From an uncultured virus (IMG/VR IMGVR_UViG_3300021961_000029) (taxonomy: Duplodnaviria; Heunggongvirae; Uroviricota; Caudoviricetes): a stretch of DNA of 58,740 bases. The notes under the pieces were generated by a model. It was not told the DNA's origin. It saw only the letters and a program-made list of their open reading frames with translations, and searched no databases. The DNA is taken from the IMG/VR virus record IMGVR_UViG_3300021961_000029; one strand, given 5' to 3'. The translations under genes and the position numbers were made by a program. Shown piece by piece: positions 8,161 through 55,600 of this stretch. The first letter of the stretch is position 1; the number at the start of each line of letters is the position of its first letter.

Positions 8161-9267
8161 ATGGGATTACCTAAAAGAAAAAATGATATCAAAGTATACG
8201 GTGTTAACCAAAACACTGATGGTCCTGCAATAACAGGAAGACGAAAAGAGTTATTAGAAGAAATTATTAAATCTGATACCTTTCTTCCTGATTCAATATT
8301 GCACGATGACCTTGACTTGGGTATGTTAGAATTTGTTAAAGAAAATTTTAAAGTAATTTCTGATGGTGAACAAATCCCAATGATTCCTAAAATTTTAACA
8401 ATTCAAAGATGGTCTGAATATACTAATAATTGGTCTTTTAGTGATGAAGATGGTAATCTAAAATTACCTTTTATTGCCGTTGTTAGAAAACCCGATGTAC
8501 AATTGGGTACTAATCCATCCATACAAAGAACCATACCAGATAGAAGAGATTTTTTCTATGCGTCAGTACCTACTTGGGATGGGAATCAAATGGGTGCGGA
8601 CATTTATAAAATACCACAACCTATAGCGGTAGACATAAGTTTTGACGTAACAATTGTATGTACAAAATTTAGGGACATAAATAAATTCAATCAAAGAGTT
8701 TTACAAAAATTCTCATCAAGACAAGCGTATACACGAGTTAAAGGTCATTACATTCCAATTGTAATGGATAGAATTGAGGATAACACACCAATGGATACAC
8801 TCGATGGTAGAAGATTCTATATTCAAAATTATGGGTTTACCATGTTAGGGTTTTTAATTGATGATGAAGAATTTGAAGTTTCACCAGCAATCAATAGAAG
8901 TATCACAATGGTTGAACCTGATTTAAGAACAATATATCCTGTTAAGAGAAAAACCAATAATATCACAATACAAAGTGAATACACTAATGGGTCAATTATT
9001 GCAAACTACACCGCAACATCACAATATAAAGTTGATAAGACTGTAGAAATTACTTTTACCGATTCTTTAGTTACAACAGGGACCCCAATTACGCAATCTG
9101 TAAGATTATTCATTGAGAGAAATCAATTATCGGGAACGACCGAATATACTATTACAGAAAATTACAATCAGTTATCGGGTACAACATCATTTAAAAATGT
9201 TAATATCGATACGATAGGGAGGTCAAAATACGAATACACTTTTACAACGGGTTCGACTTTTAACTAA
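8161..9267 (+). CDS. Tail terminator / sheath stabiliser (T4 gp15-like) with C-terminal beta-rich extension
   Basis: LKLPFIAV, PQPIAVDISFDVTI and FTMLGFL motifs; upstream of sheath; last ~100 aa Thr-rich and beta-like. Confidence 0.65.
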   Translation: MGLPKRKNDIKVYGVNQNTDGPAITGRRKELLEEIIKSDTFLPDSILHDDLDLGMLEFVKENFKVISDGEQIPMIPKILTIQRWSEYTNNWSFSDEDGNLKLPFIAVVRKPDVQLGTNPSIQRTIPDRRDFFYASVPTWDGNQMGADIYKIPQPIAVDISFDVTIVCTKFRDINKFNQRVLQKFSSRQAYTRVKGHYIPIVMDRIEDNTPMDTLDGRRFYIQNYGFTMLGFLIDDEEFEVSPAINRSITMVEPDLRTIYPVKRKTNNITIQSEYTNGSIIANYTATSQYKVDKTVEITFTDSLVTTGTPITQSVRLFIERNQLSGTTEYTITENYNQLSGTTSFKNVNIDTIGRSKYEYTFTTGSTFN

Positions 9268-9440
9268 TCCCCGTAGATATCCTTTTTTTTAGGACCATCA
9301 TTTTGTTTTGAAGATTTACAATTTTCATCAATCCATTTATGAATTAGTTTATAAATTTTCAATCCGTTTTTATCACAATACTCTTTTAAAATTTCGTGAT
9401 GTTTTTCACCTACCTTAATGTTTTTAAAGGGTTTTTCCAT
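9264..9440 (-). CDS. Small ribbon-helix-helix-like DNA-binding protein (58 aa)
   Basis: Own translation: MEKPFKNIKVGEKHHEILKEYCDKNGLKIYKLIHKWIDENCKSSKQNDGPKKKDIYGD*. Alternating strand KNIKV, helix, NG turn, helix. Fills the gap and has TATTTAT upstream (9448-9454, minus). Shorter than anything in the ORF track. Confidence 0.7.
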   Translation of the reverse strand: MEKPFKNIKVGEKHHEILKEYCDKNGLKIYKLIHKWIDENCKSSKQNDGPKKKDIYGD

Positions 9441-9577
9441 AATAAAGATAAATATCGATACTAAAAGATAAATTAGTATCTATAAGTATCATTTTTAAAA
9501 AAATCAAGGAAATCTTTCCCAAAAACAAAGATATTTATTGATAAAGAAATAAAATTAATTAACCAAACAAATTAAAA

Positions 9578-12433
9578 ATGGCAAATTCAAATAGAGTATT
9601 TGTATCTCCGGGTGTATATACATCTGAAAAAGACTTAACATTCGTAGCACAAAGTGTTGGGGTAAGCACGTTAGGTTTGGTGGGTGAAACCTTAAAAGGT
9701 CCCGCTTTTGAACCTGTATTAATAACAAATTTTGACGAATTCAAGTCATATTTTGGGGGAACAAGTCCACTAAAGGACAACAATAACAACCCAAGATATG
9801 AATTACCGTACTTCGCAAAATCTTATTTAGAAGAATCTAATCAATTATTTGTTACAAGAATTTTAGGTTTAACAGGTTACAAACCAGTTAAAACATTCGG
9901 TATACAAACAATAGGTGGTGTGACTTTAGGTACATTCAGTGGAACAACCACCGGATTAACAATGTCAGCAACAACCACTACGATTACTGCAAGTACAATT
10001 TATAGTGAATTATCTAATAAGATATCAGTTGATGGTAACTACATCACCGACTACATTGTTGCGAATTTTAGTGGTAACACTTCTGCAAACCATGGTCAAT
10101 GGTTTGTTATGGGTGAAGTACCAACATCAGGAACAAGTGGTCAAACGGCATCAATTGAAGAAATTTCACCTTTGACAGGTTTAGATAATGCAAGTAACAA
10201 CAATAACAAAGAATGGTACAACGTACTTTGTAACACAAGTGGTTCAGAAGTTTATTCTTACTTATTTGTTTACAATAGTGGTACAAGTAGATTCAATGTA
10301 ACCAAATACACATATAACGGTACATTGAATACTGCATACGATGGACAAATAGTTTTAGCGTTTAGACCAAGAGGTTCTTATAATGGTCAAACATTAAATT
10401 TAGAAACAACCACAGACGTTAATTTCCAAATTACAGGAACAGGTATCACCACAAACCCATTAGCTGAGTTTACCGTAGGTGTTACAGGTTCAACAAGTGG
10501 TGCTAAGTCATTCACTTGTAGTATGGATACCACATCTTCAAAATATGTAACTAAAGTATTTGGGGTTGATGTTTATGACAAACTAAAAAGTGAAGTTCCA
10601 ATTTATGTTTATGAATCATATCCAAATTATCTCGTAAGAGCATATGAACAAGGATACATTAGAGGTTTAAGTTTAACTGAAGTATATGAAACAGAAGGTA
10701 ACAACTTCTTAACCTCATGGGATACACCAATGACACCAACTGTTGTTTCTGAAGTTAGAGGTGGTGAGGTTGATGATTTATTTGATGTTATCACCGTATC
10801 TGATGGTGAAAGTGCAAACTTTGAAGTAAAAGTTTCAATCATCAATATAGATGTAAACACTGGTGACTTCGACTTAATTGTTCGTGACTTCAATGATACT
10901 GACGACAATATTGTGGTTCTTGAAAAATATTCAAGATGTAATATGAATCCTGACCTACCTGGTTATGTGGCTAAAAAAGTTGGTACATCTGATGGTGAAT
11001 ACGAATTACGTTCAAGATACATTATGTTATCGATGGCCAATGACCACCCGATTGATGCATACCCTGGCGGTTTCAAAGGATTTGTGAACAACACATCATT
11101 TGGAACTAAAACTTTAGGTTCAGTAATGTATAAAACAGAATTCTATGACGCGGGTGATACAACAGGATACGAAGCGGACGGAACACCTATTTTATCTTCA
11201 GGAGATAAAGTGAGAAAGGTTTACTTTGGTTTATCAAGTCCAGTTAATAAATCAACATACGATAGGGATTTATTTAAATTCAAAGGAACGGGAGCTGCGG
11301 GAACAACTAAAGGTTTCCACTTATCAACAAACGCATCTACTATCACAGGTACTACCTTCTTAACTACATCATATGATTTAGAAGGTCAAACAGGTGGAGC
11401 AAACAACGTTTTAACAAACATCAACTACCGTAAATTCACATTCGCCGCAGGTGGTGGATTTGATGGATGGGATATCTACAGAAACGTAAGAACTTACGGT
11501 GATGGTTATATCTTTGGTAAAACTACCTACACAAGTGGTAATACCACAAACGGAGGGGTGTTTAGTACGGTATCAGGAAACTCTGACTACTACGCATATA
11601 CTCAAGGTATTGACACTTTTGCAAACCCTGAGGCGGTTGACATCAATATATTCTCAACACCGGGTATTAACTTCTACGACCATAGTTCTTTAACATCATA
11701 CGCAATTGATATGATTGAAGAAGACAGAGCGGATTCACTTTATGTGATATCACCACCAAACTATGGTACTTCTGACGAAATTATAGACGCATTGGACGGA
11801 GTTGCAATTGATAGTAACTATTCAGCAACATATTGGCCTTGGATTCAAGTTAGAGACGTGGATAACGCGGTACAACTATATCTTCCACCAACAGGTGAAG
11901 TATTAAGAAATATCGCATTAACAGATAACGTATCCTTCCCTTGGTTCGCAGTAGCGGGTTACTCAAGAGGTTTGGTTAACTCTATCAAAGCTTTCAAGAA
12001 ATTAACTTTGGATGAAAGAGATGACCTATACAAAGCTCGAATTAACCCTATCGCAACATTCGCAGATACAGGAACGATAATTTGGGGTAATAAAACTCTT
12101 CAAGTTCGTGAATCAGCATTGGATAGAATTAACGTAAGAAGATTGTTGTTGAGAGCAAGAAAATTGATTTCAGCGGTGGCAGTTAGATTACTATTTGAAC
12201 AAAACGATGAACAAGTTCGTAACGAGTTCTTGAGATTGGTAAACCCAATATTAGACGCAATCAAGAGAGAAAGAGGTTTATATGAATTCCGTGTAACGGT
12301 TTCAAACGACCCTGAGGACATTGACGCTAATACTTTGAGAGGTAAAATTTATATTAAACCAACAAGAGCTCTTGAATTCATCGATGTTGAGTTCATAATC
12401 ACACCAACAGGAGCATCATTTGACAATATCTAA
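9578..12433 (+). CDS. Contractile tail sheath protein
   Basis: FVSPGVYTSEKD, GETLKGPAFEP, TYWPW, PWFAVAGYSRG, INPI, WGNKT, RINVRRLL, LFEQND, IKPTRALEFI. Confidence 0.97.
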   Translation: MANSNRVFVSPGVYTSEKDLTFVAQSVGVSTLGLVGETLKGPAFEPVLITNFDEFKSYFGGTSPLKDNNNNPRYELPYFAKSYLEESNQLFVTRILGLTGYKPVKTFGIQTIGGVTLGTFSGTTTGLTMSATTTTITASTIYSELSNKISVDGNYITDYIVANFSGNTSANHGQWFVMGEVPTSGTSGQTASIEEISPLTGLDNASNNNNKEWYNVLCNTSGSEVYSYLFVYNSGTSRFNVTKYTYNGTLNTAYDGQIVLAFRPRGSYNGQTLNLETTTDVNFQITGTGITTNPLAEFTVGVTGSTSGAKSFTCSMDTTSSKYVTKVFGVDVYDKLKSEVPIYVYESYPNYLVRAYEQGYIRGLSLTEVYETEGNNFLTSWDTPMTPTVVSEVRGGEVDDLFDVITVSDGESANFEVKVSIINIDVNTGDFDLIVRDFNDTDDNIVVLEKYSRCNMNPDLPGYVAKKVGTSDGEYELRSRYIMLSMANDHPIDAYPGGFKGFVNNTSFGTKTLGSVMYKTEFYDAGDTTGYEADGTPILSSGDKVRKVYFGLSSPVNKSTYDRDLFKFKGTGAAGTTKGFHLSTNASTITGTTFLTTSYDLEGQTGGANNVLTNINYRKFTFAAGGGFDGWDIYRNVRTYGDGYIFGKTTYTSGNTTNGGVFSTVSGNSDYYAYTQGIDTFANPEAVDINIFSTPGINFYDHSSLTSYAIDMIEEDRADSLYVISPPNYGTSDEIIDALDGVAIDSNYSATYWPWIQVRDVDNAVQLYLPPTGEVLRNIALTDNVSFPWFAVAGYSRGLVNSIKAFKKLTLDERDDLYKARINPIATFADTGTIIWGNKTLQVRESALDRINVRRLLLRARKLISAVAVRLLFEQNDEQVRNEFLRLVNPILDAIKRERGLYEFRVTVSNDPEDIDANTLRGKIYIKPTRALEFIDVEFIITPTGASFDNI

Positions 12434-12434
12434 T

Positions 12435-12481: not shown

Positions 12482-12542
12482 TTGATATTATTTGTTCCAC
12501 AGAAAAATATTAAAATATAAAAAAAATAAAATTATAAATTAC

Positions 12543-12761: not shown

Positions 12762-13250
12762 ATGGCAGATTTATTAATGAAAATGCCGGTTCCTTACGAA
12801 CCGAAGAGAGTTAACCGATTCATATTAAGATTTCCCTCATCATTGGGTATCAACGAATGGTATGTAACCTCAAGTGCTAGACCAAGTGCAAAAATTAATT
12901 CAGTTGCGATTCCGTTTATCAACACATCAACATATGTTGCTGGTAGATTTGAATGGAACGAAATAAGAGTAACCTTCAAAGACCCAATTGGACCTTCAGC
13001 CGCTCAGGCATTAATGGAGTGGTTCCGTTTACACGCAGAATCAGTTACAGGTCGTATGGGTTATGCTGCTGGTTATAAAAAAGACATTGAATTAGAAATG
13101 TTAGACCCAACGGGGGTTGTGGTTGAAAAATGGATACTTCAAGGTACTTTTATCACCGACTTAAACTTTAATGAACTAGACTATTCAAGAGATGATATTG
13201 CATCTATCACTTGTTCATTGAGAATGGATAGATGTATATTAGTTTACTAA
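12762..13250 (+). CDS. Tail tube protein (T4 gp19-like)
   Basis: 162 aa after sheath; EPKRVNRF, YVAGRFEWNEIRVTF, YKKDIELEMLDPTGVVVEKW. Confidence 0.92.
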   Translation: MADLLMKMPVPYEPKRVNRFILRFPSSLGINEWYVTSSARPSAKINSVAIPFINTSTYVAGRFEWNEIRVTFKDPIGPSAAQALMEWFRLHAESVTGRMGYAAGYKKDIELEMLDPTGVVVEKWILQGTFITDLNFNELDYSRDDIASITCSLRMDRCILVY

Positions 13251-16219: not shown

Positions 16220-19200
16220 ATGCCAACATATTTAGATTTTAACAGTACGAAAACTTTTAGAGATTTTTTAATATCAAAAACTCTAAATAGACCCAATGGA
16301 CCACAGACGTTCACTGATGCAAATTATGCTGTTCAAAACCTAAATAATTTTGCAAACGTTGACCCGGGTGATGTTAAAACAAACTGGGCGGTTTACTTTG
16401 GTCAAAATTTTATCAATTTATATTTACCACCAAACAGTACGATTGAAGAATACACTGATACGTCACTACCAAATTTAGCGTTGTTAAATGGTGGTATTTT
16501 ATATGACGGATATTTTAATTCATTTGAACCACAGACAACTAATTTAGTTAGTATTATGGGAGGCCAAAACTTCGATAATGATTCGAGGTTAATGAAATTC
16601 GCAACAACTAATATTAGAGAGAATAAACAAGGACCGGTATTTGCTAGATTACAACAAAATCTTGAATCCGCTACATTAGGTAGAGTTAGAGCTCTTGATG
16701 CTTTAGGTGGTAATCTTGCCACCGCAATCAATATTGTAACAGGTAGAGAACCTTTAGTTGAAAAAAATTACAAAATTACCGTCGCTAAAAGTTTATTAGG
16801 AAAGGGTGTTGATTTTATTCAAACAGTTGCGGGTATTGAATCACCTTTTAGTGAGATACCGGGTGATTATTTAAGTGACCCTAAAAACCCAATTATTAAT
16901 AGACCATCACCTAAAACTGAAGCCGGTGCAATATTACAAGATGTTACAGGTGTTTTAGGTAGTTTAGTCGGAATACAAAGAAGACCAAAATTAGGAAGAA
17001 AACCTTCTGATTTAATGATTGAATATATGGGTGAAGGTCAAAAACAAATTTTATTTGACCAATTAACCTATTCAACATATGCACCAAACTATACAACAGT
17101 TGCAAGGTCTCAACAGTCATCCAAAATCTTCAACTTTGTAAATAGTGTTGCGGGTGGAATCAAAAACGTTTTAGGTTTAGAAGCACCAAAAGGTGTTGCA
17201 TATATTGGAGACGATAGAAGTGAAGACGTAAAATATACCATGTCTGACTTTAACGACAACATGGTTAAGAGTAGTTATTTCTTGAGTCTAATGTTTGACC
17301 CCGCACAAGCCACTTTATTTGAAAGACAAAGAAATATATCTCAAGGTGGACCAATAAGTGGAAAGTTAACTTGGATTAGTAAAAATTCACAAAACAAAAT
17401 TGGATTATGGAACCAAGAGTTTCAATCAAGAGAAAGTGATGCGTATAATAGTTCAATTTCAACAAAATATGGATTTAGAGAAGATTCAATTTTAGGTAAG
17501 ACCCAAGAAATATTGGATTCAATGCCTAAGGATGGTCAAGCAACCAGAACTCACGTGGGTAACGTTATTGACCAAACAAGTAGAATTTTCAAAGAGGGTG
17601 AATCAATGTTATCAAGAGGTTCAGCGATTAAATTTGTCGATAAATACAAACAAGAAACGGGTGCTGAATATTGTCGTGTTTGGACAAAAGATAGGTCATA
17701 TATGAATTATTCTGACACCATGAAAAGAACTGCTAACATCAGAAAATTTGATGATAGTATATTAGGTGGTGACAGTAGACCTTGGAACATCAATATTGCT
17801 CCGATGTCAAGTGGAAACTATGATGCAAAAAATAGTTTCAAAAATTCATTCGGTGCTAAAAACTCAACAAACATATTTGAATCACCAACGGGTGACGGAT
17901 TTTACGCTAAAAAATATATGTTCTCAATTGAAAACTTAGCTTGGAGAACATCAAACACACCTGGTTTTACATACAATGATTTACCATTCTGTGAAAGAGG
18001 CCCTAATGGTGGTAGAGTTATGTGGTTCCCACCATATGATTTAAAAGTTAGTGAAAACAACCAAGCCAGATGGCAAGACAATACTTTCTTAGGTAGACCC
18101 GAACCGATATACACATATCAGGATACATCAAGAAGTGGACAACTTTCATTTAAAGTGGTTGTCGACCACCCAAGTATTTTAAACCTATTAGTTAGAGAAT
18201 ACTTCAAAGGAATGTCAGATGAAGAATCTGAAAACTACATTAATGCATTTTTTGCGGGATGTGAAGAATTAGATTTCTATTCATTAATTAGAAGATATGC
18301 ACAATTAGATACAAACGACATTAAGTTGATTCAATCGTTTTTAAATAAAGGACAAAATCCTGAGATTATAAAACAATATAAAGTTACCACAGAGTATCCT
18401 GTAGAATCAACACCAACAAATACAACACCTCAAGGTAATGACGCCGATTCAAAACCTGTTGATGAGGTTGTAATTAAATTAAAATACGAAAACAATAGAC
18501 CGGGGCCAAGTTTAGACCTTGATACGACCAAAAACTACACAGAACTTTACAACACATATAAAGTTAGAAAACAAGATTATATTACAAAATTGGGTTCTGC
18601 TTTAAATACTTTAACAGGTTTAACACAAACGGACCCACAAGTAAAGAAAGAAAAATCATTTATTTTTGGTGATGAAAACAAAGCCGTAACTCAAGATGAT
18701 ATTAACTTCCAAGTTACGAAAATTGGTCAATATTTTGACGACGCTCAGACTTCATTCAACACATATGAAACTACACTAAATAATTTAATTACAGATATTT
18801 CGGGTAAAACCGCTGACACTATTAAATTTCAGATTCTATCTTCTTGTTCCTCAGTTGCCACAACTGATTACAATGAAAGATTGGCGTTAAGAAGAAGTCA
18901 CTCAGTTATCCAAGATATTTTTGATAGATTGACCGCTAGTGGTGGAAAAAAAGAATGGCAAATTAAATGGCCAACTAGTTTAAATTTAGTAAATAAAAAT
19001 AATTCCGAAAATGATAAGGAAGTTATACAAAGGGGACAACCTATCGTAGTTGTTAAAGAATATAGTACCAAAGATTTTGGTTTTGAACATGACACTAAAA
19101 TAGTAATTGAATCAGTAAACTATGGTGAATCATTAACAGGAACAAATCCTGATGTTGATTGTTTAAATAAAGATTTTGTTAAAATACCTGATTTAAAAGT

Positions 19201-34550: not shown

Positions 34551-34556
34551 AATATT

Positions 34557-37596: not shown

Positions 37597-37597
37597 C

Positions 37598-43618: not shown

Positions 43619-45378
43619 TGGATAAAAAAAGAATCATATTACCATCTAAAAAGTTTTTTGGCTCAATTAATGAAGACCAAACGATTCGAGTTGGATTAGA
43701 GGAAACCGAAAATCTTTTAAGAGAAGGTGATAGAACGATAATCTTAAATAATGCCGAATTATTCAATAAAGAAAGGAACGAGAGCACCAATTATAAGATA
43801 CATGGTAAATTAAAAATGGTCTTTAGGAATCTTTATAGTGGGTCATCTGAATATAACCCACTTTTAAAGAGACTTTATTTAGTTGGAGATGGTAGTAATA
43901 ATAATTTTGATGGGTTTTTACCTTATCAAGAATTTGCGTTCCTAAGAAAAGATGTATTCAGACAAGTGAACACCATACAAACGGTATCATCTTTAACAAC
44001 ATACACACCCGTTATAACTTATTCTGGTGAAACTGAACATGTCACGATAACAAGTATAGATGCTCCTTACCACAATTGGAATGTTTATTTATCCTATGTG
44101 TATGGTCAGGACAGTACCTATCCAATGAAATATACTTTAAGTGGTGGGACTTCATTTAGTTTTACTGCTGGTGACGGTATACCATTTAGAGTCGAAAGTT
44201 TACCTAATTCTTATAAATTTACTAGTCCCGTTGAACATGGAATGTCATCAGGTGAATTCATTACACTTAGTGGTGGAAGTTTCAACAATACCGTAAATGT
44301 TACAGGTAGAACATTTAGTATTATAAGTGTTGGGGATTCAATATATGATTCTGAAAAATATGTTTTAGAAATATCAAAATCCGAATTACCATCGGGAACA
44401 ACACTATCGACTGTTGTTTTTGGTAAAAGATGTCTTGATAGGAATAACATCACAGGTTCAACATCGAGTTACTACGTTCATAAACATAAAACACTTACAG
44501 AAAGAGAAGATTATATCTTAGATAAGATTGGATTTGAATCATCAATTTGGGAAAACGAAAGAAAATTATTGTTAGAAAATAGTGCCGGAGTTTCAGACGT
44601 TTTAGTTGAGAGGAACATGATGGAATCTTTAATTTATGATTTTAAAGAACCATTTATTTTAACAGGATTAACAAACAATTTAGGTTACCTACCAACAGAT
44701 TTGTATGTAACAGTCATATTAGCTAACAGAAATGGATATTTTCAATACCCACCAAAAGTTGGGTGGAAATTTAATTTTCACAATACTTGGGTTGATAAAC
44801 ATTTTAATGGAACGGGTTCAACTGAAACATCCATAACAACTAGTGGATTTAGTAGAACAATTAGTGCCACAACATACAATTTTGTATCAGGAACAGACTT
44901 ACCATTGAACACTGTTTTACACGGGGCGTTTGTTGAGTATAATCGTACAGAATTACAAGAGAGAATAATAAGTGAGGCATATCATAGATTTTCAAACCCA
45001 CTTTTTGTTTTTGATTATGGACAAACAGGTACAACAAGTACTTTTTCGGGTGGTTCAATTACAAACATGTATGGGTTGTTTTATCAACCACACCACAGAG
45101 TAAAATTAAGACAACTTTCCCCTTATATAGAAACATCCAAAACAAACCAAGTTTATGGATTACCACAGAATGCGAAATATATGGAAGACGAAGCTCTTTG
45201 GAAATGGAGAGATTTATATGACCATGGATTTATAGACCCAGAGGGTTTTGGGACAAACTATCCATTCATAAACAATATTCATTATGTAAAAAGTGACATC
45301 AATTTCTATTTACGAAATGAAAACATTTACACAAATAAACAAGACGCGGTTAAAAATGTAAATAAGTTTAAATGTTAA
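43618..45378 (+). CDS. Putative virion structural protein
   Basis: 586 aa, stop/start-coupled (TAATG) to the upstream gene; aromatic and Thr-rich. Confidence 0.6.
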   Translation: MDKKRIILPSKKFFGSINEDQTIRVGLEETENLLREGDRTIILNNAELFNKERNESTNYKIHGKLKMVFRNLYSGSSEYNPLLKRLYLVGDGSNNNFDGFLPYQEFAFLRKDVFRQVNTIQTVSSLTTYTPVITYSGETEHVTITSIDAPYHNWNVYLSYVYGQDSTYPMKYTLSGGTSFSFTAGDGIPFRVESLPNSYKFTSPVEHGMSSGEFITLSGGSFNNTVNVTGRTFSIISVGDSIYDSEKYVLEISKSELPSGTTLSTVVFGKRCLDRNNITGSTSSYYVHKHKTLTEREDYILDKIGFESSIWENERKLLLENSAGVSDVLVERNMMESLIYDFKEPFILTGLTNNLGYLPTDLYVTVILANRNGYFQYPPKVGWKFNFHNTWVDKHFNGTGSTETSITTSGFSRTISATTYNFVSGTDLPLNTVLHGAFVEYNRTELQERIISEAYHRFSNPLFVFDYGQTGTTSTFSGGSITNMYGLFYQPHHRVKLRQLSPYIETSKTNQVYGLPQNAKYMEDEALWKWRDLYDHGFIDPEGFGTNYPFINNIHYVKSDINFYLRNENIYTNKQDAVKNVNKFKC

Positions 45379-45379
45379 T

Positions 45380-46210
45380 ATGAAAATTCTTGCTAAAAAT
45401 AACGACCAATCCATTTTAATTTCTTCAAATCAGATGTTTAAAACTGATTTAGGATGGACAGATAATGCCCAAGAAATGGAGCAAGAAATTCTTTATGAAA
45501 TAATCAACCCAACAGAAAATTACGAGACCGTAAGATATATACATTCCTCGTATGAACAAATGCCACCCTATGGTACTCCATATCAACAAACTGATATATG
45601 GTATAACTTTTATTTTTTAAACAGTCTTGGTAACTACTCTCAAAATTATGAAGATGTATCAATTACCATGGAAGAAAATTCAAAAATGTTAAAACAATCA
45701 ACAGAAAGTTTTTTCAGATTAGAATTTTATAAAACAAACAATGACCAATCACCAAACCAAACAAACAGAAGGTTAGTTTTTGCGAAAAATTTATCACTAC
45801 CCTTAGGTGAAAGAATATATTATACAGGTACTCCATCAGGTGCAACACTACCATTAAATGATTTTATCTACGTACCAGTTTTTACTGGTTCAAATTATAG
45901 AAATACAGAAAATATGTACTTTTTTTGGTTTGCTGATGATTCACCATTTAGTGAAACCAATATCACAGGTAACACATTCTATATGACCGCCAAATATTAC
46001 AATGCGAAAGACGGTAGTGTTATAGATTTTGTTAATAAATCAAAAACGGTAAACGCGACGACACCTTACGTTGAAGAAGAAGATGTTTATTATAAAGTAA
46101 TTATAGATAGGACGGATTATTCTTATATCGTTTACGCATATAATGGTTCATTAGGTACGAGAAAAGGAACCACATCCGCACCAATAAATTTTTATGAGAG
46201 AAAACAATAA
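45380..46210 (+). CDS. Putative virion structural protein
   Basis: 276 aa, tightly packed in the same operon. Confidence 0.6.
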   Translation: MKILAKNNDQSILISSNQMFKTDLGWTDNAQEMEQEILYEIINPTENYETVRYIHSSYEQMPPYGTPYQQTDIWYNFYFLNSLGNYSQNYEDVSITMEENSKMLKQSTESFFRLEFYKTNNDQSPNQTNRRLVFAKNLSLPLGERIYYTGTPSGATLPLNDFIYVPVFTGSNYRNTENMYFFWFADDSPFSETNITGNTFYMTAKYYNAKDGSVIDFVNKSKTVNATTPYVEEEDVYYKVIIDRTDYSYIVYAYNGSLGTRKGTTSAPINFYERKQ

Positions 46211-47376
46211 TGGATATTAAATCACCCACAAAATACGAGATACTTAGGAAGAATATTCCTAATGTTAAATTGTATTCAAACGATGGACCGTATTGGTACA
46301 ATAGTTTGGGTAGTTTAATATCATGGTCAGAATCACAGTATTTAGACCCATTAGATGGATTTGTTGTTTATAACGTAACCGGCGGAACAGTCTCTTCGGG
46401 GTACTATGTTTGGACAGGTAATAGTATTGCAACAACTTCTTACGGTGATGAGGGATGTGATTTAAGCCTTGAATTGTACGCTTGGGAAAACATCACCAAA
46501 GGTGAGGCATATGGTGAACATATGTTACCAATATTCTTGGAAACTCACATTGATGAAATGGGTGTTATGGTTGGATTTGACGGTAACTTAGAACAAGTTG
46601 AACAGATATGTAATTTTTCTTATACACAAACAGGTAACACAGTTCAAGTTTACAATACCGTGGACACAACTAAAGTTTCCGAAATACACTTTATTGACTT
46701 TACTGTGGATTGGGGTGATGGCACAACAAGTATTTTATCAACAACAGGTATCACCGCGTCAAAAACTTACTCATCAACAGGTGAGACGACGATATCAATA
46801 TCAATCAACACTCCTTGGAGTCAGTTTGAAACAAAGAAAAAGGTACAAGTACCATCCAACACCACTGTAAGTAATCCACTTGGAACTTTCTCAGGATTCA
46901 CAATACCTTATACAAATATTACAGGTCAAACACAAAATTATCTAAATGATTTGGATTACTCAGGTTTGAATACAGGTTACACCACATTTACATATGCTGC
47001 TATAGGTAAGAGTAAAATCAGTGAATTAAAATTATATGGTACAAACACCTACTCAGGTGTCACCACTGGTGTCACAAACGGTGTTTCGTACAGTGCCTAC
47101 ACCATTGACAATTTATATTATCAAGATTTTGCGGATGGAATTACAACAATTACAGGTACAACTTCAGGTTTCACTAAAGAAGAGGTGATAAATAAAGTTA
47201 TTACAAGGAACGAACATTTCTTAGGATTCATTGACGAACCGGTAATTTATTCGGATATTTTCGTAGAGAGAGGTAAACAAGGAGTTATGGAAAAAACATT
47301 ACGATTATCCGAAATTGATAACACAGGAGAATTATCAATTTACGGAAATGGATATTTTAATATTAGAAAACAATAA
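46210..47376 (+). CDS. Putative virion protein with PKD-like domain
   Basis: FTVDWGDGT...KTYSSTG PKD-like motif. Confidence 0.6.
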   Translation: MDIKSPTKYEILRKNIPNVKLYSNDGPYWYNSLGSLISWSESQYLDPLDGFVVYNVTGGTVSSGYYVWTGNSIATTSYGDEGCDLSLELYAWENITKGEAYGEHMLPIFLETHIDEMGVMVGFDGNLEQVEQICNFSYTQTGNTVQVYNTVDTTKVSEIHFIDFTVDWGDGTTSILSTTGITASKTYSSTGETTISISINTPWSQFETKKKVQVPSNTTVSNPLGTFSGFTIPYTNITGQTQNYLNDLDYSGLNTGYTTFTYAAIGKSKISELKLYGTNTYSGVTTGVTNGVSYSAYTIDNLYYQDFADGITTITGTTSGFTKEEVINKVITRNEHFLGFIDEPVIYSDIFVERGKQGVMEKTLRLSEIDNTGELSIYGNGYFNIRKQ

Positions 47377-47400: not shown

Positions 47401-48318
47401 ATGGCAGTAGGTAGTTACGGTATAATTAGACCATCAGATGTATCGCCGGAAGATGTTGAAATTTATTTTCACTATGTTTCGGATAGAAATAGCACGTCAA
47501 CTGTTACACTTAAAAAATTAAGTTCAGTTGAGGTATTAACACCCGTGTATCATAATTCAGATACTACGGAAGACACCTCAGCACCAAATGTCGAAATTTT
47601 AGGTGGGTTGTATAATTTAAAACTAACCGCAGATGATTTTGCTGATTTAGGTGTTTATACTTTACACATTCGACCAAAACAGATAAGAACAAGTATTACT
47701 GATTGTGGAATTTTAGCATCATTACCCTCAGTTAGAGGTTTGGTTATCGATTTATCAAACGTCCCTGCTGACGATAGAAACAAATTTACACCACAAGGAT
47801 TAGTCGGATATAGAATAGAATACATCAATTCTTCTGACAATAAAAAAATACCAAATTTTTATAGAATTGTTACATCATCTTTCTACTGTACACCAATCGT
47901 TTCAAATTTAACAAGTACGTCACAAAAAGCGATTAGATATCAATATAGTGAACAAGCAACGAATTTAATGTTCCTAACGGTAACACCATCTTCAGCCCCC
48001 ACTAACAAGCCAAATACAGTACCATTTATTGGTGTACCATCACAAAAAATCATTTTAACAAACACATATTTAAATCCAACCACGATAGAGATTGAAATGG
48101 TTGAACACGACGCTTCAACACTGGCACACGCTCTGTATGGTAATCAAAGTAAGGCGGTTTCACAAGGTATCTATACCATTTATGACAACAACAATAATAT
48201 CTATAGACAATACAATCTTTACGAAGTTAAAGACGAATTTAATGAGACATTATATGAGATTCGTGAAGAAAGAAATGATGTAGATGAAACCTTAAACTTT
48301 GATACTATAACAGAATAA
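47401..48318 (+). CDS. Putative virion structural protein
   Basis: 305 aa with TATTTAT at 47383-47389. Confidence 0.6.
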   Translation: MAVGSYGIIRPSDVSPEDVEIYFHYVSDRNSTSTVTLKKLSSVEVLTPVYHNSDTTEDTSAPNVEILGGLYNLKLTADDFADLGVYTLHIRPKQIRTSITDCGILASLPSVRGLVIDLSNVPADDRNKFTPQGLVGYRIEYINSSDNKKIPNFYRIVTSSFYCTPIVSNLTSTSQKAIRYQYSEQATNLMFLTVTPSSAPTNKPNTVPFIGVPSQKIILTNTYLNPTTIEIEMVEHDASTLAHALYGNQSKAVSQGIYTIYDNNNNIYRQYNLYEVKDEFNETLYEIREERNDVDETLNFDTITE

Positions 48319-51300
48319 TGGCAAAAAGGAAAGTACCAAGTCAAGCGTCAAGCGGGGCGGAAACATTTAGTGATTTCTTAGTTGGTAGACAGATAACCGA
48401 TGGGTCGTCCGCTCTAACCAACACCGTATTTGCGCTCGACAAGTCTATTCCTGACAAAGATTCTAAGAATTTTACATCTAATCCATTTTCTCAATTTTTA
48501 ACTTTAGATACTTTAAAAGAGGTTGAGGGCATACAAACAACATCCCCAACTCCAAGAAAAAAAAGAACGGATGAGGTAAGATTTAAGGGAAATAAAAAAT
48601 ATGCTGATAAATCATTATTTGGTTCTTTAAGAAGTAGAATCTTAGTTTCATTAACTAAAATTATTAATAAATTCCCCGGTGCTATTTCCATATTGGCAGA
48701 TAGTCCAATAGGTGTATCGAATTTTAGTGCGAGTGGAATTACATATAACGATAGTACCAATACCACAACTTTTTATATTGAGAGAAGTAAAATCTTTAAT
48801 CCATTTGAATTAGTTTTTGTTGAACCGAATTCGGTAATTAAACCAGAGACCGAAAATGAATTAAGAAATTTTTACTCTTCTTACACAAAATATGTTGTTG
48901 TTACAGACAACACACCATACCCTATTTTAGAATACACCGAACCAAACACGGATAATAAAATTTTATTAAGGGTATATGGTAAACCGTTCACGGGTTCAAC
49001 TTATTCAAGTAATCTTTTAATAAGACCCAATGACGGTTTAGTGGAAGAATTCTTCCAAGGTTTAGATGATTTAGAGGAATCTCTTTTAAATAGAGATACA
49101 AATCCAATTTACACCTCAACATTTAAAGTTCCAAGAGACACCCAAGACAATACAAAAACGTCCTTGGTTGATGTTGTTTTAACTTGGCCGATTTCAAGTG
49201 ATGGTTATAATATACAAATCACAGGATTTGATTATGACATCTATGTGAACCACTTAAAAGATATTGCGGATGAAATAGATGGTTATAAATCTAATTTAAT
49301 GGTTAGATTTTTGGCAGCACCTCAGTTATTTGAATTTGACACCGAGGACAAAAGAGCCGAAAGTGTTTTCCAATTATATGGACAAAGTTTTGATAGTGTA
49401 AAAAAATATATTGACAACATAGCTTACATGAGAAATGTTAGTTATGACGGCATCAATAATTTACCAGATGTACTTTTAAAGAATTTAGCAGAGAATTTAG
49501 GATTATCAACACTAAATTTATTTGACGAAAATAGTTTGAATGATGTTCTATATTCAAGATTAGATTCAAATTACAACGGAGTATCTACAGGTACAAATTT
49601 AGTTGAAGCCGAATATGAATTTTATAGAAGATTATTAATAAACTTAGCTCACATTTATAAATCAAAAGGTACTAGGTCTTCTATTGATTTCTTTTTAAAA
49701 TTCTTAGGAGCGCCCGAACCTTTAATTAGAATTGATGAATACGTTTATAAAGTAACATCAATCCCTGCTAGTTTTGATTTACAACAAGACATATATGACG
49801 CGATTCAAGGTAACAAAACGTATTCATACGCAACTTTTGATACAACAGGTTACACATATACCAATGTTACATACTCCGCGTCAACAACTTTTGATAGAGA
49901 TGGTTACCCTGTTGATGAATTAACAGGTTTACCAAGAAGAGCGTTTAATGCAACCGAAGGAATATTTTTTGAAAAAGGTTCTGGTTGGTACGATATCACT
50001 TTATCACATCGTTCTCCCCTTGTTTTGGATTCTGAAAATTCAACATTAACGGGAACAACAAAATCAATTAAAACAAAAAACAAGGGTTACACATATGGTG
50101 AAGATTATTTTAATCTGTACCGAACACTACCTGGATTAGATACAGGATATGAGTTAGTTCCCGATATTGATAATGGTAACGGTAAACCGATTGAGGATGA
50201 TTATCTATTAATCTTAAATAGAAAAAATATTGGTATATACATATCACCAGCAAGAGGTATTGACTACGATATCTATAGACAAAGTAGGGAATTATTAATA
50301 AGTTTCGGTTCAAATACTTTATTACCACAAACAGGTAAAACATTTGCGGAATTTTTAGACACATTTATCCATGGTCTTGTAACAAATTCAAATAAAATTC
50401 GATACAAAAAGAATTACATACAATTAGAAGATGTTTTTCAAGATTATATCTCACAAACCACAGGTTTTACCCCTTATAATCAAATAAATGTTATTGAATT
50501 TGTAAACAAATTATCACCTTATTGGCCACAATTAGTTGAACAATTAGTACCATCAACGACTTTATGGACAGGTGGTAATTTAATTGAAAATAATATATTC
50601 GGTAGACCAAAATATCAATATAGATACGATTGTCAACCATTAGAATTTATTGAAGAACTTTATCCTGACTTTGAAACTATTATTGAAGAGGATTTAGAAA
50701 ATATTTTAGGTGAAGAAAATAATTTTAGAGGGCTAATAAACTTAACTGGAGTAACCTACTACCCTATTATTGAAATAGATGGGACAATTTACGGCGGTGC
50801 AGACTACACTGGATTAACATCTTCAATGTATGTAATCTTAAGTGGAACAAGTAACACCTCTAACAGTGCTAAATTATTCGACCCACAACCATTTACAGGT
50901 TGTACAAGTGGTGTAACAAGTGGAGACACAGTTAATTTATCTCTAATTTGTGATTACAAAACCTATCTTGAACCTAATGTTACTCAAATCAAAAGTTTAT
51001 GGTTAAACGCATTATCTGAATTAATATCAGACATCACTATAACAAGAAATAGTGCTGGTTATGTACCATATTCTGCGTTTACGGGAACCACAGGACAAAC
51101 TTATTTTTCTGAGACAATACCTTTAATAAAATACCAAACATTTATTGACGAAAATGACGTTGAAAAGGTTAAATTTTCATCTGTAAAATTAGGTCCAAAT
51201 GAATGTTCCGTTACTGATTATTTTGATTATCGATTTGAAGCCGATTATAACGTAACTAAAAACACAAACGGTATCAGTGTTAAAGTTTACACCGATAATG

Positions 51301-52559
51301 AAGCTTTTTGTGACACACCTAGTGGATGTACATTAGTAAGTGACGTATTTTTCGAGGTTATTGGATATAAAACAGGTGTACAACAAGGTTCTACATGGCC
51401 ATTCCACATTTACGCTAACTGTGTAAGTGGAACAAATGAGAATGCGGACGTACACATTGAAAAAGTTAGTGATTGTGTGTACAAACTAACAGGTGTATCT
51501 GAAAATGACGTAATTAATTTTAATATTGTTGACGCAGCAAATAAGGAAGTTAACTTTAAAATTGATGGACTACAAGGAAAGATAGAACACGACCCATGTC
51601 CAACACCTAATGGTAAAAGTCACGTAGAATTATTCAATATTGTTGGTTACCAAGGGTCAATATCGAACCCAATTTCTGTTATTTCAGGTGCAACATATTG
51701 TGATAACTACACGGGTTACACAATACAACCTAAAGTTGAATATAAATCAATTTTCAATTACGGTTTAAAATGTGATTCCATAGTTTTAGCGGTTAATAGT
51801 GGATTAACCATTAATAATCAAACCACAGAAGCGAATGTTCAAACATACATAGGTAATGGTTCTATTGTAGAGAAAAATGTGTGTGATTTAAATGTTGGTG
51901 AATTCGTTTTATCTGCATCATATAAACCATGTTCAGGATACACAAACCAACAGATTGTAAACGGACCTGTTTCGGGTTACTCTTTCACATTTAATTACCA
52001 AAAACTTGAAATTACCGATATCGAATGTTTGGCTTCAGTTAAAAAAAGTATTATTACCGGATTGACTTTAAATAACACTTATGAAGTTTTTGAAGTTTTA
52101 CCGACAACACAATTAAGAGTCTATACAAACAGAATAGTTGAAGATTTTGGTACACCAACAAATAGTACCTATTTCTTTGATGACCGTTTCCCTGAAGAAT
52201 TACAAAAGAAACCAACGGATTTTATAGAACCTTGTTGTGACCACCCTAAAGAATTATATAATCATGGAGATTATTTAATAAACCAATATGGTGACATAAT
52301 AGAAGTTATTGATGTAGATTTAAATTACTGTGAATCAGGATTGTACTTTAATTTAAATTTCGAATTAAACAACACACCACTAACAGATGAATTTGTTGTC
52401 GTTTTCAACGGAAATACGGACGAACAAATCCTAATGAAACACAAATACAATAAACATCCAAACATCGGATTTAATCTCGGTCAATATTATATCGACGCCA
52501 ATTATTGTTCTACAGAACCAACCAATGTAGAATTAAGTAGTTCCATTTTTGATTGCTAA
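48318..52559 (+). CDS. Baseplate wedge-like protein (gp7 / P2 gpI-like motif) with Cys-rich C-terminal region
   Basis: LPDVLLKNLAENLG and IYKSKGTRSSIDFFLKFLG resemble wedge proteins. Confidence 0.6.
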   Translation: MAKRKVPSQASSGAETFSDFLVGRQITDGSSALTNTVFALDKSIPDKDSKNFTSNPFSQFLTLDTLKEVEGIQTTSPTPRKKRTDEVRFKGNKKYADKSLFGSLRSRILVSLTKIINKFPGAISILADSPIGVSNFSASGITYNDSTNTTTFYIERSKIFNPFELVFVEPNSVIKPETENELRNFYSSYTKYVVVTDNTPYPILEYTEPNTDNKILLRVYGKPFTGSTYSSNLLIRPNDGLVEEFFQGLDDLEESLLNRDTNPIYTSTFKVPRDTQDNTKTSLVDVVLTWPISSDGYNIQITGFDYDIYVNHLKDIADEIDGYKSNLMVRFLAAPQLFEFDTEDKRAESVFQLYGQSFDSVKKYIDNIAYMRNVSYDGINNLPDVLLKNLAENLGLSTLNLFDENSLNDVLYSRLDSNYNGVSTGTNLVEAEYEFYRRLLINLAHIYKSKGTRSSIDFFLKFLGAPEPLIRIDEYVYKVTSIPASFDLQQDIYDAIQGNKTYSYATFDTTGYTYTNVTYSASTTFDRDGYPVDELTGLPRRAFNATEGIFFEKGSGWYDITLSHRSPLVLDSENSTLTGTTKSIKTKNKGYTYGEDYFNLYRTLPGLDTGYELVPDIDNGNGKPIEDDYLLILNRKNIGIYISPARGIDYDIYRQSRELLISFGSNTLLPQTGKTFAEFLDTFIHGLVTNSNKIRYKKNYIQLEDVFQDYISQTTGFTPYNQINVIEFVNKLSPYWPQLVEQLVPSTTLWTGGNLIENNIFGRPKYQYRYDCQPLEFIEELYPDFETIIEEDLENILGEENNFRGLINLTGVTYYPIIEIDGTIYGGADYTGLTSSMYVILSGTSNTSNSAKLFDPQPFTGCTSGVTSGDTVNLSLICDYKTYLEPNVTQIKSLWLNALSELISDITITRNSAGYVPYSAFTGTTGQTYFSETIPLIKYQTFIDENDVEKVKFSSVKLGPNECSVTDYFDYRFEADYNVTKNTNGISVKVYTDNEAFCDTPSGCTLVSDVFFEVIGYKTGVQQGSTWPFHIYANCVSGTNENADVHIEKVSDCVYKLTGVSENDVINFNIVDAANKEVNFKIDGLQGKIEHDPCPTPNGKSHVELFNIVGYQGSISNPISVISGATYCDNYTGYTIQPKVEYKSIFNYGLKCDSIVLAVNSGLTINNQTTEANVQTYIGNGSIVEKNVCDLNVGEFVLSASYKPCSGYTNQQIVNGPVSGYSFTFNYQKLEITDIECLASVKKSIITGLTLNNTYEVFEVLPTTQLRVYTNRIVEDFGTPTNSTYFFDDRFPEELQKKPTDFIEPCCDHPKELYNHGDYLINQYGDIIEVIDVDLNYCESGLYFNLNFELNNTPLTDEFVVVFNGNTDEQILMKHKYNKHPNIGFNLGQYYIDANYCSTEPTNVELSSSIFDC

Positions 52560-52583
52560 TGATAAAAACAATAAAAATAGACG

Positions 52584-52614
52584 TTGACAAACCCCTAAAA
52601 ATTGAGTATATTTT
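52584..52614 (+). promoter_or_regulatory. Putative promoter for the mucin-like gene
   Basis: TTGACA-N17-TATATT about 40 nt upstream of ATG 52653. Confidence 0.45.
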
Positions 52615-52652
52615 TATAATAAAAATAGATATAGATAAGACTGTAGATTTAA

Positions 52653-55600
52653 ATGGCATTAATAAAGATAAACACAGGTAATTTTGATGGTGAAATTGGT
52701 GTTATCACATTTTATCCCTGTACTGGCGGTACCATTAATTTAGGTACTGTTGTGATGCCGTATTATTACGACACAACTTATTACTTAGGAACCTATTCAG
52801 TTTATTTTCCATCGCATGACAAAACATGTTACGCGGCAATTAATTGTCCATCCCCAACACCTTCAATTACACCTTCTGTTACACCAAGTTTAACGCCAAC
52901 ACCACAAAGTACACCTCCTGTTACACCAACTGTCACAACCACACCTTCAGTAACACCAACTGTCACAACAACCCCATCAGTAACTTCAACTCCATCAGTG
53001 ACTCCATCAGTTACTCCAACGAGTTCAATTACCCCAACCCCATCGGTTACACCAACAAGAACACCAGATGTTACACCATCAGTTACACCTTCTGTAACTC
53101 CAACTAGCTCGATTACACCATCAATCACACCCACTAGCTCTGTAACTCCATCTATTACACCTTCAGAGACTCCAAGTGTAACACCAACAAGTTCAGTTAC
53201 TCCAAGTGTTACACCATCAGTTACTCCTTCTATCACACCATCGGTTACCACATCTGTTACACCAACTTCTTCAGTAACACCAAGTTTAACACCGTCGTTA
53301 ACTCCAAGTGAGACTCCGTCTGTAACACCAACTTCGTCGGTTACACCTTCAGTAACACCATCGGTTACCACATCTGTTACACCAACTTCTTCAGTAACAC
53401 CATCTGTTACTAGTTCTGTTACACCAACAAGTTCAGTAACTCCATCAGTTACACCATCGGTTACTCCGTCTTTAACACCATCTATAACCCCAACAAGTTC
53501 CGTTACACCATCTGTTACGAGTTCAGTGACTCCATCTATAACCGCTTCAGTAACTCCATCAGTTACACCTACTAGTTCGGTTACACCATCTATCACACCA
53601 TCAGTCACACCATCTGTAACTCCAACAAGTTCCGTAACTCCGAGTGTTACACCATCAATTACTTCAAGTGTTACACCGTCAGTTACAAGCTCTGTAACAC
53701 CAACAAGTTCAGTAACCCCATCATTAACACCATCGATAACAAGTTCAGTAACCCCTTCAGTAACACCAACATCATCTGTAACTCCATCGGTAACACCATC
53801 TGTTACCAGTTCCGTAACTCCAAGTGTTACTAGTTCTGTAACCCCTTCGGTTACCCCGTCAATCACACCAAGTGTAACCCCAACTTCGTCTGTAACTCCA
53901 TCGGTTACACCTTCGGTCACTAGTTCAGTTACACCATCGGTAACACCTTCTGTTACAAGTTCAGTTACACCATCACTAACACCATCAGTAACACCATCAG
54001 TTACTAGTTCTGTTACACCCTCTGTTACTCCATCAGTAACTCCGACATCATCTGTAACACCATCAGTTACAAGTTCATTGACTCCAAGTGTAACACCATC
54101 CGTTACACCGTCAGTTACTTCAAGTGTCACTCCATCGGTAACACCTTCAGTAACACCTACATCATCGGTAACCCCATCAATTACACCAAGTATAACACCG
54201 TCAGTCACCCCAACATCATCTGTTACCCCATCGATTACACCAAGTGTCACTCCATCAGTTACACCATCGGTTACACCTTCGGTCACTAGTTCCGTTACAC
54301 CATCATTGACACCGTCAGTAACCCCAACCTCGAGTATAACACCTTCCGTAACTCCTTCTGTAACTTCAAGTGTTACTCCATCAGTAACGAGCTCGGTAAC
54401 CCCTTCAGTTACTAGTTCGGTTACACCATCGGTTACCTCATCGGTTACACCAACCTCATCCGTAACTCCTTCTGTTACACCATCAAGAACACCATCATTA
54501 ACACCTTCAGTTACTAGTTCAGTTACACCATCTGTTACTTCAAGTGTAACCCCATCGATTACTAGTTCCGTAACACCAACGTCATCAGTTACACCTTCTG
54601 TAACACCTTCGGTAACCCCTTCTGTAACATCATCTGTAACACCATCATTAACACCTTCCGTAACTCCTTCAATAACACCATCTGTTACTAGTTCCGTAAC
54701 ACCAACTAGTTCCGTAACCCCTTCGGTTACAAGTTCGGTTACTCCATCTGTAAGTTCATCTGTAACACCAAGTTTAACACCCTCAAGAACACCTTCAGTT
54801 ACACCATCAATCACACCTTCCGTAACTCCAACAAGTTCTGTTACCCCATCACTTACACCAAGTGTGACAAGTTCAGTAACTCCATCAGTCACTAGTTCTG
54901 TAACTCCTTCAATAACACCATCTGTTACTAGTTCCGTTACACCAAGTGAAACACCAAGTGTTACACCTACTAGTTCAGTAACACCATCTGCTACACCAAG
55001 TATAACACCAAGTGAAACACCATCGGTAACACCATCTGTTACTAGTTCAGTTACACCAAGTATAACACCTAGTGTTACTAGTTCCGTTACACCAAGTATA
55101 ACACCATCAATCACTCCAAGTGAAACACCAAGTGTTACACCAACATCAAGTGTTACTCCGTCAGTTACTAGTTCTGTAACTCCATCAGTCACACCAACAT
55201 CATCAGTTACACCAAGTATAACACCAAGTGCAACACCTTCGGTTACACCCTCTAGTTCAGTTACTCCAAGTGTCACTAGTTCAGTAACACCATCAGTAAC
55301 CCCATCTGTTACTTCATCAGTTACACCAAGTATAACACCGTCAATCACTCCTAGTGAAACTCCGTCTATAACCCCAACAAGTTCTGTAACTCCATCAGTT
55401 ACTAGTTCAGTTACACCATCTATCACACCAACATCATCAGTTACTCCAAGTATAACTCCAAGTATCACACCAAGTGAAACTCCATCTGTTACACCAACTA
55501 GTTCAGTTACACCGTCGGTTACTCCAAGTATAACTCCAAGTGAAACTCCATCTGTAACCCCAACATCATCCGTTACACCAAGTATAACACCATCAATCAC

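Follow-up and report, generated by a model that had tools for sequence, protein, structure and literature searches.

A Ser/Thr-Gly-x-Thr motif as a probable O-glycosylation site on particle proteins of an uncultured jumbo myophage

Introduction

Few cases of virion glycosylation have been described in tailed phages, and no recognition motif for it was found in the literature, subscription papers being outside the scope of the search. In mycobacteriophages, phage glycosyltransferases (GTs) have been proposed to coat particle proteins (Freeman et al. 2023, cited in PMC12619734), with glycans described at the capsid and tail tube C-termini. The Actinobacillus NGT/Agt system and AmGGT (PMC12159676; PDB 8XSG, 8XSH) offer a soluble, sequon-initiated pathway with a GT4 extender, AmGGT, which does not take glycopeptides as acceptors, being a homolog of the glycopeptide-extending Agt. 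In Clostridioides difficile, the cytoplasmic GT-A enzyme SgtA, described together with BclA3, modifies Thr, or Ser, with O-GlcNAc in T-G-A-T-containing peptides (PMC7157674), and virus-encoded enzymes of chlorovirus PBCV-1 glycosylate the outer capsid at non-canonical sequons (PMC7019647). A chlorovirus consensus (A/G)NTXT is absent from the chlorovirus review text and was set aside.

We analysed a window of 58,740 nucleotides (IMG/VR record IMGVR_UViG_3300021961_000029), the whole stretch of DNA under study, in which a sequence-only reading had proposed [ST]GxT as the candidate sequon of a virion-modification system. Unlike in mycobacteriophages, the tube here carries no motif, and one short motif is common to dozens of internal sites in many proteins. 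A predicted phage GT-B enzyme of 357 aa has AmGGT as its closest solved relative, but at 16-17% identity, and the NGT sequon Asn-x-Ser/Thr is not in excess in the window proteins (155 vs 148.8 expected, 1.04x). As in BclA3, collagen-like runs occur in the related phage G012; the window proteins, in contrast, lack a collagen-like character, and their motifs show no enrichment of Gly at +4 (0.74x). The proposed system resembles that of PBCV-1 in its virus-encoded enzymes and non-canonical sequon, whereas glycosylation in the latter is Asn-linked and PBCV-1 is a eukaryotic virus whose capsid fold differs.

The window belongs to the bS21-type jumbo myophages. Indeed, bS21 was identified in relative G004 (TIGR00030, 32.9 bits, above the cut-off), with an ortholog in G001; the gene is encoded on the reverse strand and has TerL, portal, protease and major capsid protein genes as neighbours, which is the setting seen in bS21-encoding freshwater jumbo myophages of about 300 kb (PMC9723584; neither 'glycosyl' nor 'motif' occurs in its main text). 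Overlap with the moraphages is possible: these have four core glycosyltransferase groups (PMC12619734, a paper in which 'sequon' does not occur), and several of their listed core functions (gp13, gp25, gp6, PhoH and dUTPase), matched by function name, are present here.

Motif excess in probable particle proteins

The features of the window that bear on the motif are the following.

3534..4652, minus strand: gp13-like neck adaptor, motif-free
8161..9267, plus strand: 368-aa protein before the sheath, 3 motifs in its C-terminal extension (nt 9130, 9175, 9247)
9578..12433, plus strand: tail sheath (phrog_23, PF04984, PF17482), 951 aa, 8 motifs, C-terminal core free
12762..13250, plus strand: tail tube, motif-free (internal control)
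16220..21061, plus strand: 1613-aa tail-region protein, 3 motifs vs 1.5 expected, not significant
21378..27401, plus strand: 2007-aa protein whose gene follows a baseplate wedge-like one, 13 motifs, all in residues 867-1218
37144..39430, plus strand: gp25 and gp6 wedge, motif-free
39485..43618, plus strand: 1377-aa protein, encoded immediately behind gp25 and gp6, 12 motifs
43618..45378, plus strand: 586-aa baseplate-operon protein, 8 motifs
45380..46210, plus strand: 276-aa baseplate-operon protein, 2 motifs (family range 0-5, n=21 sequences)
46210..47376, plus strand: 388-aa baseplate-operon protein, 11 motifs (family range 5-12, n=23 sequences)
48318..52559, plus strand: 1413-aa baseplate-operon protein, 19 motifs, several tandem
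52653..58740, plus strand: open-ended ORF (over 2000 aa) with mucin-like Thr/Ser/Pro/Val repeats, 1 motif

The per-protein counts of the sequence-only reading were reproduced exactly for the sheath and the 368-, 1413-, 2007-, 1377-, 586- and 388-aa proteins (in the last, 11 of 15 [ST]G dipeptides have the Thr), and its confinement of the 2007-aa motifs to one stretch also held (nt 23976-25031). The sheath motifs lie at residues 121, 125, 165, 187, 288, 303, 590 and 653, the Pfam sheath domains (667-941) containing no motif, and the three motifs of the 368-aa protein fall in residues 324-363 as claimed; this protein has no family hit, its gp15-like label being that of the earlier reading alone. 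The tube, neck and gp6 wedge proved motif-free as described, and so did the hub and gp25; the tube is motif-free in 10/10 orthologs too, and none of the six [ST]G of gp6 has Thr at +3. About two motifs had been counted in the polymerase, helicases, SSB, RecA and RNR, and two were found, of which one is the Walker A of DnaB; with a third in the 5'-3' exonuclease, the set has 3 motifs in 4099 aa vs 1.9 expected. Beyond the proteins counted earlier, motifs also occur in the 276-aa and 1613-aa proteins, a 648-aa protein (1 motif) and the ORF at 52653, which is probably a separate O-glycosylation substrate. The 1377-aa protein would lie at the baseplate periphery, judging from its neighbours.

The predicted enrichment over shuffles was borne out by both whole-protein and local shuffling. 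In 18 morphogenesis-block proteins, picked by gene position, [ST]GxT occurs 80 times vs 15.7 expected (5.1x); the virion proteins of four control phages reach only 0.72-1.52x with equal or higher Ser/Thr/Gly content, and Thr follows [ST]G at +3 in 44% of cases in the window vs 6-18% in these controls. Among three-residue patterns at 6 spacings, TGxT and SGxT rank as the top two, and in the window morphogenesis proteins neither Ser, Val or Ile at +3 nor N/D-G turns are enriched. Each of the 7 main motif proteins is significant (p 0.002-0.01, 500 whole-protein shuffles), and over 31 proteins 83 motifs stand against 13.6-19.5 after local shuffling (maximum 32 in 300 shuffles), so that whole-protein and 10/20/50-residue shuffles rule out composition as the cause of the excess. 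A DNA-level motif was likewise rejected, since 76 sites lie in the coding frame of 8 genes vs 0-2 per other frame; the sites are written with synonymous codons, and the excess is therefore one of protein. It should be noted that proteins without a family hit, assigned to the virion by gene position, carry 72 of the 83 sites, and that the 7 family-annotated structural proteins by themselves (8 motifs vs 2.7-4.1 expected) are not significant as a set, shuffle maxima of 9-11 exceeding the observed 8.

Site turnover and the capsid protein

Among orthologs, sites shift position while motif counts stay similar. As an example, across 29 relatives the sites of the 1377-aa protein occupy 63 different columns, and no column is kept in 80% of these relatives. 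The three residues are nevertheless retained or lost jointly: over 110 disjoint ortholog pairs, retention of Thr+3 is 0.93 where S/T and G are both retained and 0.49 otherwise, as compared with 0.79-0.85 and 0.60-0.67 for four control patterns. Its replacement is most often Ser (52/83), the [ST]GxS control is likewise coupled (0.69 vs 0.40), and Gly is retained within the motif (0.89) at essentially the rate seen outside it (0.86-0.88). Pro at x stands at 0.04x, and Asp, Glu and Lys are also rare there; in some sublineages, the motif has widened to [S/T]-[G/A]-x-T.

The motif is present in 76/77 family capsid proteins; the capsid proteins of the genomes G007, G012 and G014 have no [ST]GxT. Within the 77 proteins, 179 of 191 sites fall in residues 114-314, the E-loop insertion between the stretches aligned to T4 gp23. 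This insertion also varies more than any other part of the protein. The E-loop insertion domain of T4 faces outward, and we infer that the motif sites do so on this particle.

Glycosyltransferases accompanying the motif

As the sequence-only reading had noted, the window holds no glycosyltransferase, a family search of it giving no such match; in the matching record, three core glycosyltransferases lie 6-12 kb upstream. In G001, the 406-aa GT-B is encoded at 61578-62798, the 357-aa GT-B at 65829-66902 and the 259-aa GT2 at 66899-67678. The core pair, GT-B (357 aa) and GT2 (259 aa), lies within the particle genes in all motif-rich genomes analysed, and it occurs in 8/8 motif-rich (1.8-3.5x) and 0/3 motif-poor genomes (1.0-1.4x). 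The core trio shows the same distribution, with 8/8 enriched genomes (G001 and 7 relatives, 3 of the 8 chosen by GT homology alone) and 0/3 unenriched ones. The expected co-variation of motif and enzyme was thereby observed, as a single contrast, because all 8 GT-positive genomes belong to one lineage; their low end (G012 and G005, 1.8-1.9x) comes near the 1.44x (z 3.5) of Flavobacterium phage immuto, a phage without the trio. Across the lineage, 4706 enzyme homologs were found, and GT-B and GT2 co-occur in 239/240 loci. A search of cultured phages gave no match for the 388-aa protein, the 357-aa GT-B, GT2 or a distant GT-B, and the 25 kb surrounding the LR756501 homolog contained no proteins that were informative.

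The GT-B is predicted to be an Agt-like GT4 enzyme: its profile finds AmGGT at E 9.4e-28 (next match 1.4e-5). The structural relatives of GT2 are weak (best E 0.0007), GT2 shows no similarity to the accessory GT60 discussed below, and the 406-aa GT-B family has no structure match below E 0.3. This 406-aa GT-B was rejected as the motif's sole enzyme, since the motif stands at only 1.25x in a Phapecoctavirus that carries two of its homologs (E 1.6e-37 and 2.6e-25).

Outside the morphogenesis block, the motif stands at 1.05x in G004 and 1.24x in G005; the values of 2.7x in G007 and 3.1x in G008 are high because the block coordinates missed several motif-rich proteins. G007, with its motif-free capsid protein, was discarded as a case of natural loss, its genome-wide excess being 3.0x and its trio intact. 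In G008, a GT match was flagged with a TAA; an ORF of 352 aa is present nonetheless.

Discussion

The roughly fivefold excess on probable outer proteins, together with a GT pair kept among particle genes, suggests that the motif is probably a sugar-coating address. We consider it likely that [ST]GxT is the recognition site of a phage-encoded cytoplasmic O-glycosylation system coating outward-facing particle parts, which would be the capsid insertion domain, the sheath outer domains, the baseplate periphery and the fibres. The sequon proposed at the outset gains from the motif's specificity, the control phages, site turnover, coupled retention, the exclusion of Pro and charge at x and the location in the capsid insertion; attachment, sugar identity, acceptor hydroxyl and exposure are what we infer. 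Late in infection, a core enzyme (GT2, as a guess) would add the first sugar to the motif hydroxyl, the acceptor being most simply the interchangeable Ser/Thr before Gly and Thr+3 the residue that is read. The Agt-like GT-B would then extend this sugar, and variable sugar clusters elsewhere could decorate the extended glycan. Such a coat would probably benefit the phage as a hydrated shield, be it from proteases, grazers or host surface defences, or as an aid to adsorption.

Enrichment, coupling and turnover would suit any recognition site, and the motif could be read by a non-sugar modifier (e.g., phospho- or acyl-transfer), a small decoration protein or an ion, with the GTs serving DNA or host-surface modification. 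Phage GTs have indeed been interpreted as DNA modifiers (PMC12619734), and sugar clusters of jumbo phages, in the part of PMC7824862 consulted, as host polysaccharide modifiers. However, the GT pair that tracks the motif is situated among particle genes, and the nearest solved relative of its GT-B is of the Agt glycopeptide/oligosaccharide family (Z 26.9 over 309 residues with AmGGT), well above T4 DNA alpha-glucosyltransferase (18.2). Moreover, a C5-methyltransferase (PF00145) was found in only 1/5 genomes. We hold this alternative to be rather unlikely. A search for a TET-like dioxygenase (PF12851) gave 0/5 genomes, its positive controls likewise giving no signal.

Quite unlikely, in our estimation, is a structural habit of the lineage's beta-rich proteins, in which the motif would cap the passage from turn to strand or form a fibre module that is repeated, and no enzyme would be involved. 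The four sites of a capsid model (pTM 0.37, poor overall) do lie in coil or at coil-to-strand junctions, fibre-like proteins show tandem and repeated contexts, and collagen-like G-x-T runs in G012 yield hundreds of sites mechanically, its raw 3.3x falling to 1.8x after masking. Against this, sites occur in unrelated folds at shifting positions, and the excess survives both collagen-run masking and unique-context counting, with no collagen run (at least 4 G-x-x triplets) in the window proteins. In addition, [ST]Gx[VI] and [ND]GxT, taken as generic turns, are depleted in the window (0.64-0.66x) vs 1.2-1.85x in the control phages.

Glycosylation of the sites by a host enzyme or an accessory GT60 in place of the core pair is very unlikely. 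GT60 (PF11397), a polypeptide alpha-GlcNAc transferase family (PMC8724618), was found in 4/4 larger relatives searched and is absent only from the 38%-complete G001, but Xanthomonas phage Xoo-sp13 carries it without excess (0.99x, its top patterns being Pro/Thr patterns). As to a host enzyme, D-[ST]-[AILVMT], the Bacteroidota general O-glycosylation motif, stands at 1.01x in the window proteins (48 vs 47.7 expected).

Returning to phage-encoded O-glycosylation, a wider reading, which we put forward tentatively, is that a very large jumbo-phage lineage may have its own soluble, sequon-reading system, in which the GT2 and Agt-like pair of the morphogenesis block would read Ser/Thr-Gly-x-Thr and place thousands of glycans per particle, variable sugar islands would switch the outer coat, and a GT60 route would serve the mucin-like fibre. 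A defined motif with named soluble enzymes turns a guess about an uncultured phage into a peptide assay in E. coli. If true, coated particles would be predictable from sequence alone across the lineage, and cytoplasmic O-glycosylation would gain a genetically portable tag of four residues, possibly a short-tag tool. The proposed rule, with Thr+3 read and Pro excluded, resembles Asn-x-Thr.

Motif excess in probable virion proteins

The motif [ST]GxT (Ser/Thr at position 0, Gly at +1, a free residue x and Thr at +3) is real and sequon-like, and probably a glycosylation tag. The per-protein counts of the sequence-only reading were all recovered from the window sequence, and the enrichment it proposed held against composition-preserving shuffles. 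In the blocks that encode neck, tail and baseplate, 18 ORFs, picked by position and not by motif, with motif-free ORFs kept, contained 80 sites against 15.7 expected (5.1x, z 18.8, 20-residue local shuffling), compared with 3 against 1.9 in eight replication/nucleotide genes. The signal is confined to the coding frame, and among three-residue patterns at six spacings, TGxT (51 against 9.7) and SGxT (32 against 7.1) ranked first and second, the third pattern reaching a log p of -6. Neighbouring patterns ([ST]GxS 1.18, [ST]AxT 1.76, NGxT 0.77, DGxT 0.43) and other sequon patterns (N-x-[ST] 1.04, D-[ST]-[AILVMT] 1.01) remained near chance. Note that 72 of 83 sites belong to proteins that matched no family; taken by themselves, the seven structural proteins with an annotation hold 8 sites, all in the sheath, which is not above the shuffle maxima.

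Control virion proteins, annotated or position-picked and with Ser/Thr/Gly content as high as the window's, gave 0.72x in Synechococcus phage ACG-2014f, 1.25x in a Phapecoctavirus, 1.27x in HTVC008M and 1.52x in Flavobacterium phage immuto, while tail regions gave 0.97x in Mel-JY01 and 1.3x in LR756508. Thr follows [ST]Gx in 44% of cases in the window versus 6-18% in four control phages, in which [ST]Gx[VI] and [ND]GxT, low in the window, are raised.

Glycosyltransferases tracking the motif

The window comes from a T4-like myophage, and its sheath gene is 100% identical in G001, a 116-kb record reaching 60 kb further upstream. In G001 and its relative G004, bS21 lies on the strand opposite to the head genes, described as the hallmark of the bS21 jumbo phages, whose hosts are predicted to be Bacteroidetes (PMC9723584). 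Judged by the published descriptions, the moraphages, which have four core groups of glycosyltransferases (PMC12619734), resemble or overlap them. Class Ia ribonucleotide reductase genes lie between DnaB and gp25 (window 33573-36989), with no ortholog found in G007 or G008, both incomplete genomes, and a DUF5856, Dps-like protein (28269-28643) lies between the tail and replication genes.

The search for glycosyltransferases beyond the window, suggested by the sequence-only reading, found three:

G001, 6-12 kb upstream of window position 1: 406-aa GT-B, 357-aa GT-B and 259-aa GT2

This trio occurs in 8/8 family genomes. With collagen runs masked and unique contexts only, these genomes show [ST]GxT at 1.8-3.5x, compared with 1.23x, 1.44x and 1.03x in the trio-free Mel-JY01, immuto and Xoo-sp13. 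Motif and enzymes co-vary (8/8 enriched, 0/3 unenriched), but the eight form one lineage and the co-variation is a single contrast. Since the relatives G012-G014 were picked through distant GT-B homologs, blind to the motif, their motif excess was a real prediction. Among 240 partly redundant loci with the 357-aa gene, 239 also have the GT2. Homologs of the 406-aa GT-B occur in the Phapecoctavirus, which has no motif excess, and this gene was rejected as the motif's sole enzyme. The 357-aa GT-B, well modelled (pLDDT 83.4, pTM 0.85), best matches AmGGT by both sequence profile and fold; AmGGT is described as homologous to Agt, an enzyme that lengthens glucose chains on proteins glycosylated in the cytoplasm, although AmGGT itself acts on free oligosaccharides (PMC12159676). 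A 226-aa gene adjoining the pair (G001 64980-65660), conserved in 5/5 genomes compared, gave no family hit and by our own reading has a HAD-like start.

[ST]GxT would be a recognition site read by a modifying enzyme. The enzymes tracking it are glycosyltransferases, and one belongs to an extending type familiar from protein glycosylation in the cytoplasm. We consider phage-encoded O-glycosylation at [ST]GxT the likely, though far from certain, explanation. That something else reads the motif is unlikely. Virion glycosylation is already known in mycobacteriophages, according to citing passages (PMC12619734), and in chloroviruses (PMC7019647); our literature searches found no paper giving a phage virion sequon. 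The window adds composition-matched controls, the coupling test below, a shorter list of candidate enzymes (the GT-B/GT2 pair) and the connection to Agt.

Site turnover and location in the particle

Eight ortholog families were reduced to 90% identity, leaving 248 sequences that share ancestry and so are not independent; in these, [ST]GxT stands at 5.9x. Per-protein counts are similar among orthologs and site positions shift: none of 63 site columns in the 1377-aa family is kept in 80% of its 29 sequences, a column count that alignment jitter may inflate. In 110 disjoint ortholog pairs, each read in both directions, Thr at +3 was retained in 0.93 of 1121 cases with positions 0 and +1 kept and in 0.49 of 233 otherwise, versus 0.79-0.85 and 0.60-0.67 for four control patterns and 0.69 and 0.40 for a fifth, [ST]GxS. 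Changes at +3 most commonly gave Ser (52/83). At position x, Pro is nearly absent (0.04x) and Asp, Glu and Lys are underrepresented (0.4-0.6x); hydrophobic residues are preferred at -1. The motif is widened to [ST]AxT in G008 and G012 (2.6x and 1.8x with masking), a form depleted in G005 (0.7x).

The capsid carries the motif in 76/77 family proteins, and residues 114-314 hold 179 of 191 sites (Mel-JY01 row excluded). This stretch is flanked by T4 gp23-aligning residues 69-105 and 337-558; the corresponding gp23 insertion probably faces outward. Sheaths hold 2-11 sites each in the eight family genomes (51 versus 17.5 expected) and 0-2 in the three outside phages (3 versus 3.8), and tube, portal, neck and gp6 hold 0-2 in each ortholog found in ten other genomes.

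The sequon-like behaviour proposed earlier is supported: a motif that bears hydroxyls, has a free, Pro-excluding x, occurs on unrelated outer proteins and is renewed at new places looks like an enzyme recognition site. A mere structural habit is quite improbable, even though the capsid model, weak overall (pLDDT 54.8, pTM 0.37), has a beta-rich insertion whose sites fall in coils or where a coil meets a strand. Under O-glycosylation, the Ser/Thr exchange at position 0 (111/157 changes) points to this residue as candidate acceptor; by the precedent of SgtA, which modifies Thr in T-G-A-T-containing peptides (PMC7157674), the acceptor may be +3, or both hydroxyls.

Sugar islands and fibres

Glycosylation of the motif by a host enzyme or GT60 is very unlikely; GT60 is present in 4/4 larger relatives and also in Xoo-sp13, a phage without motif excess, and would not suffice as the motif's enzyme. 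Larger sugar islands differ in content between G004 and G005:

G004 265375-281748 (L093-L094): accessory island, mostly absent from G005; two GT60, HAD/nucleotidyltransferase, TylF, cupin, RuBisCO-like protein (PF00016, E 1e-31)
G004 153713-165822 (L087-L088): second island; epimerase, two FkbM methyltransferases, several GT2, UDP-GlcNAc 2-epimerase

A second glycosylation route, combining GT60 with a mucin-like ORF, is possible:

Window 52653-58740, + strand: mucin-like ORF with Thr/Ser/Pro/Val repeats, almost Gly-free, continuing past the window end

Its G004 ortholog (107949-124367, 5472 aa) has a different repeat, and Pro/Thr patterns are enriched in Xoo-sp13. In addition, collagen-like fibres of G012 (at 1182, 329122 and 358138) carry Thr in 63% of third positions and resemble BclA3 peptides.
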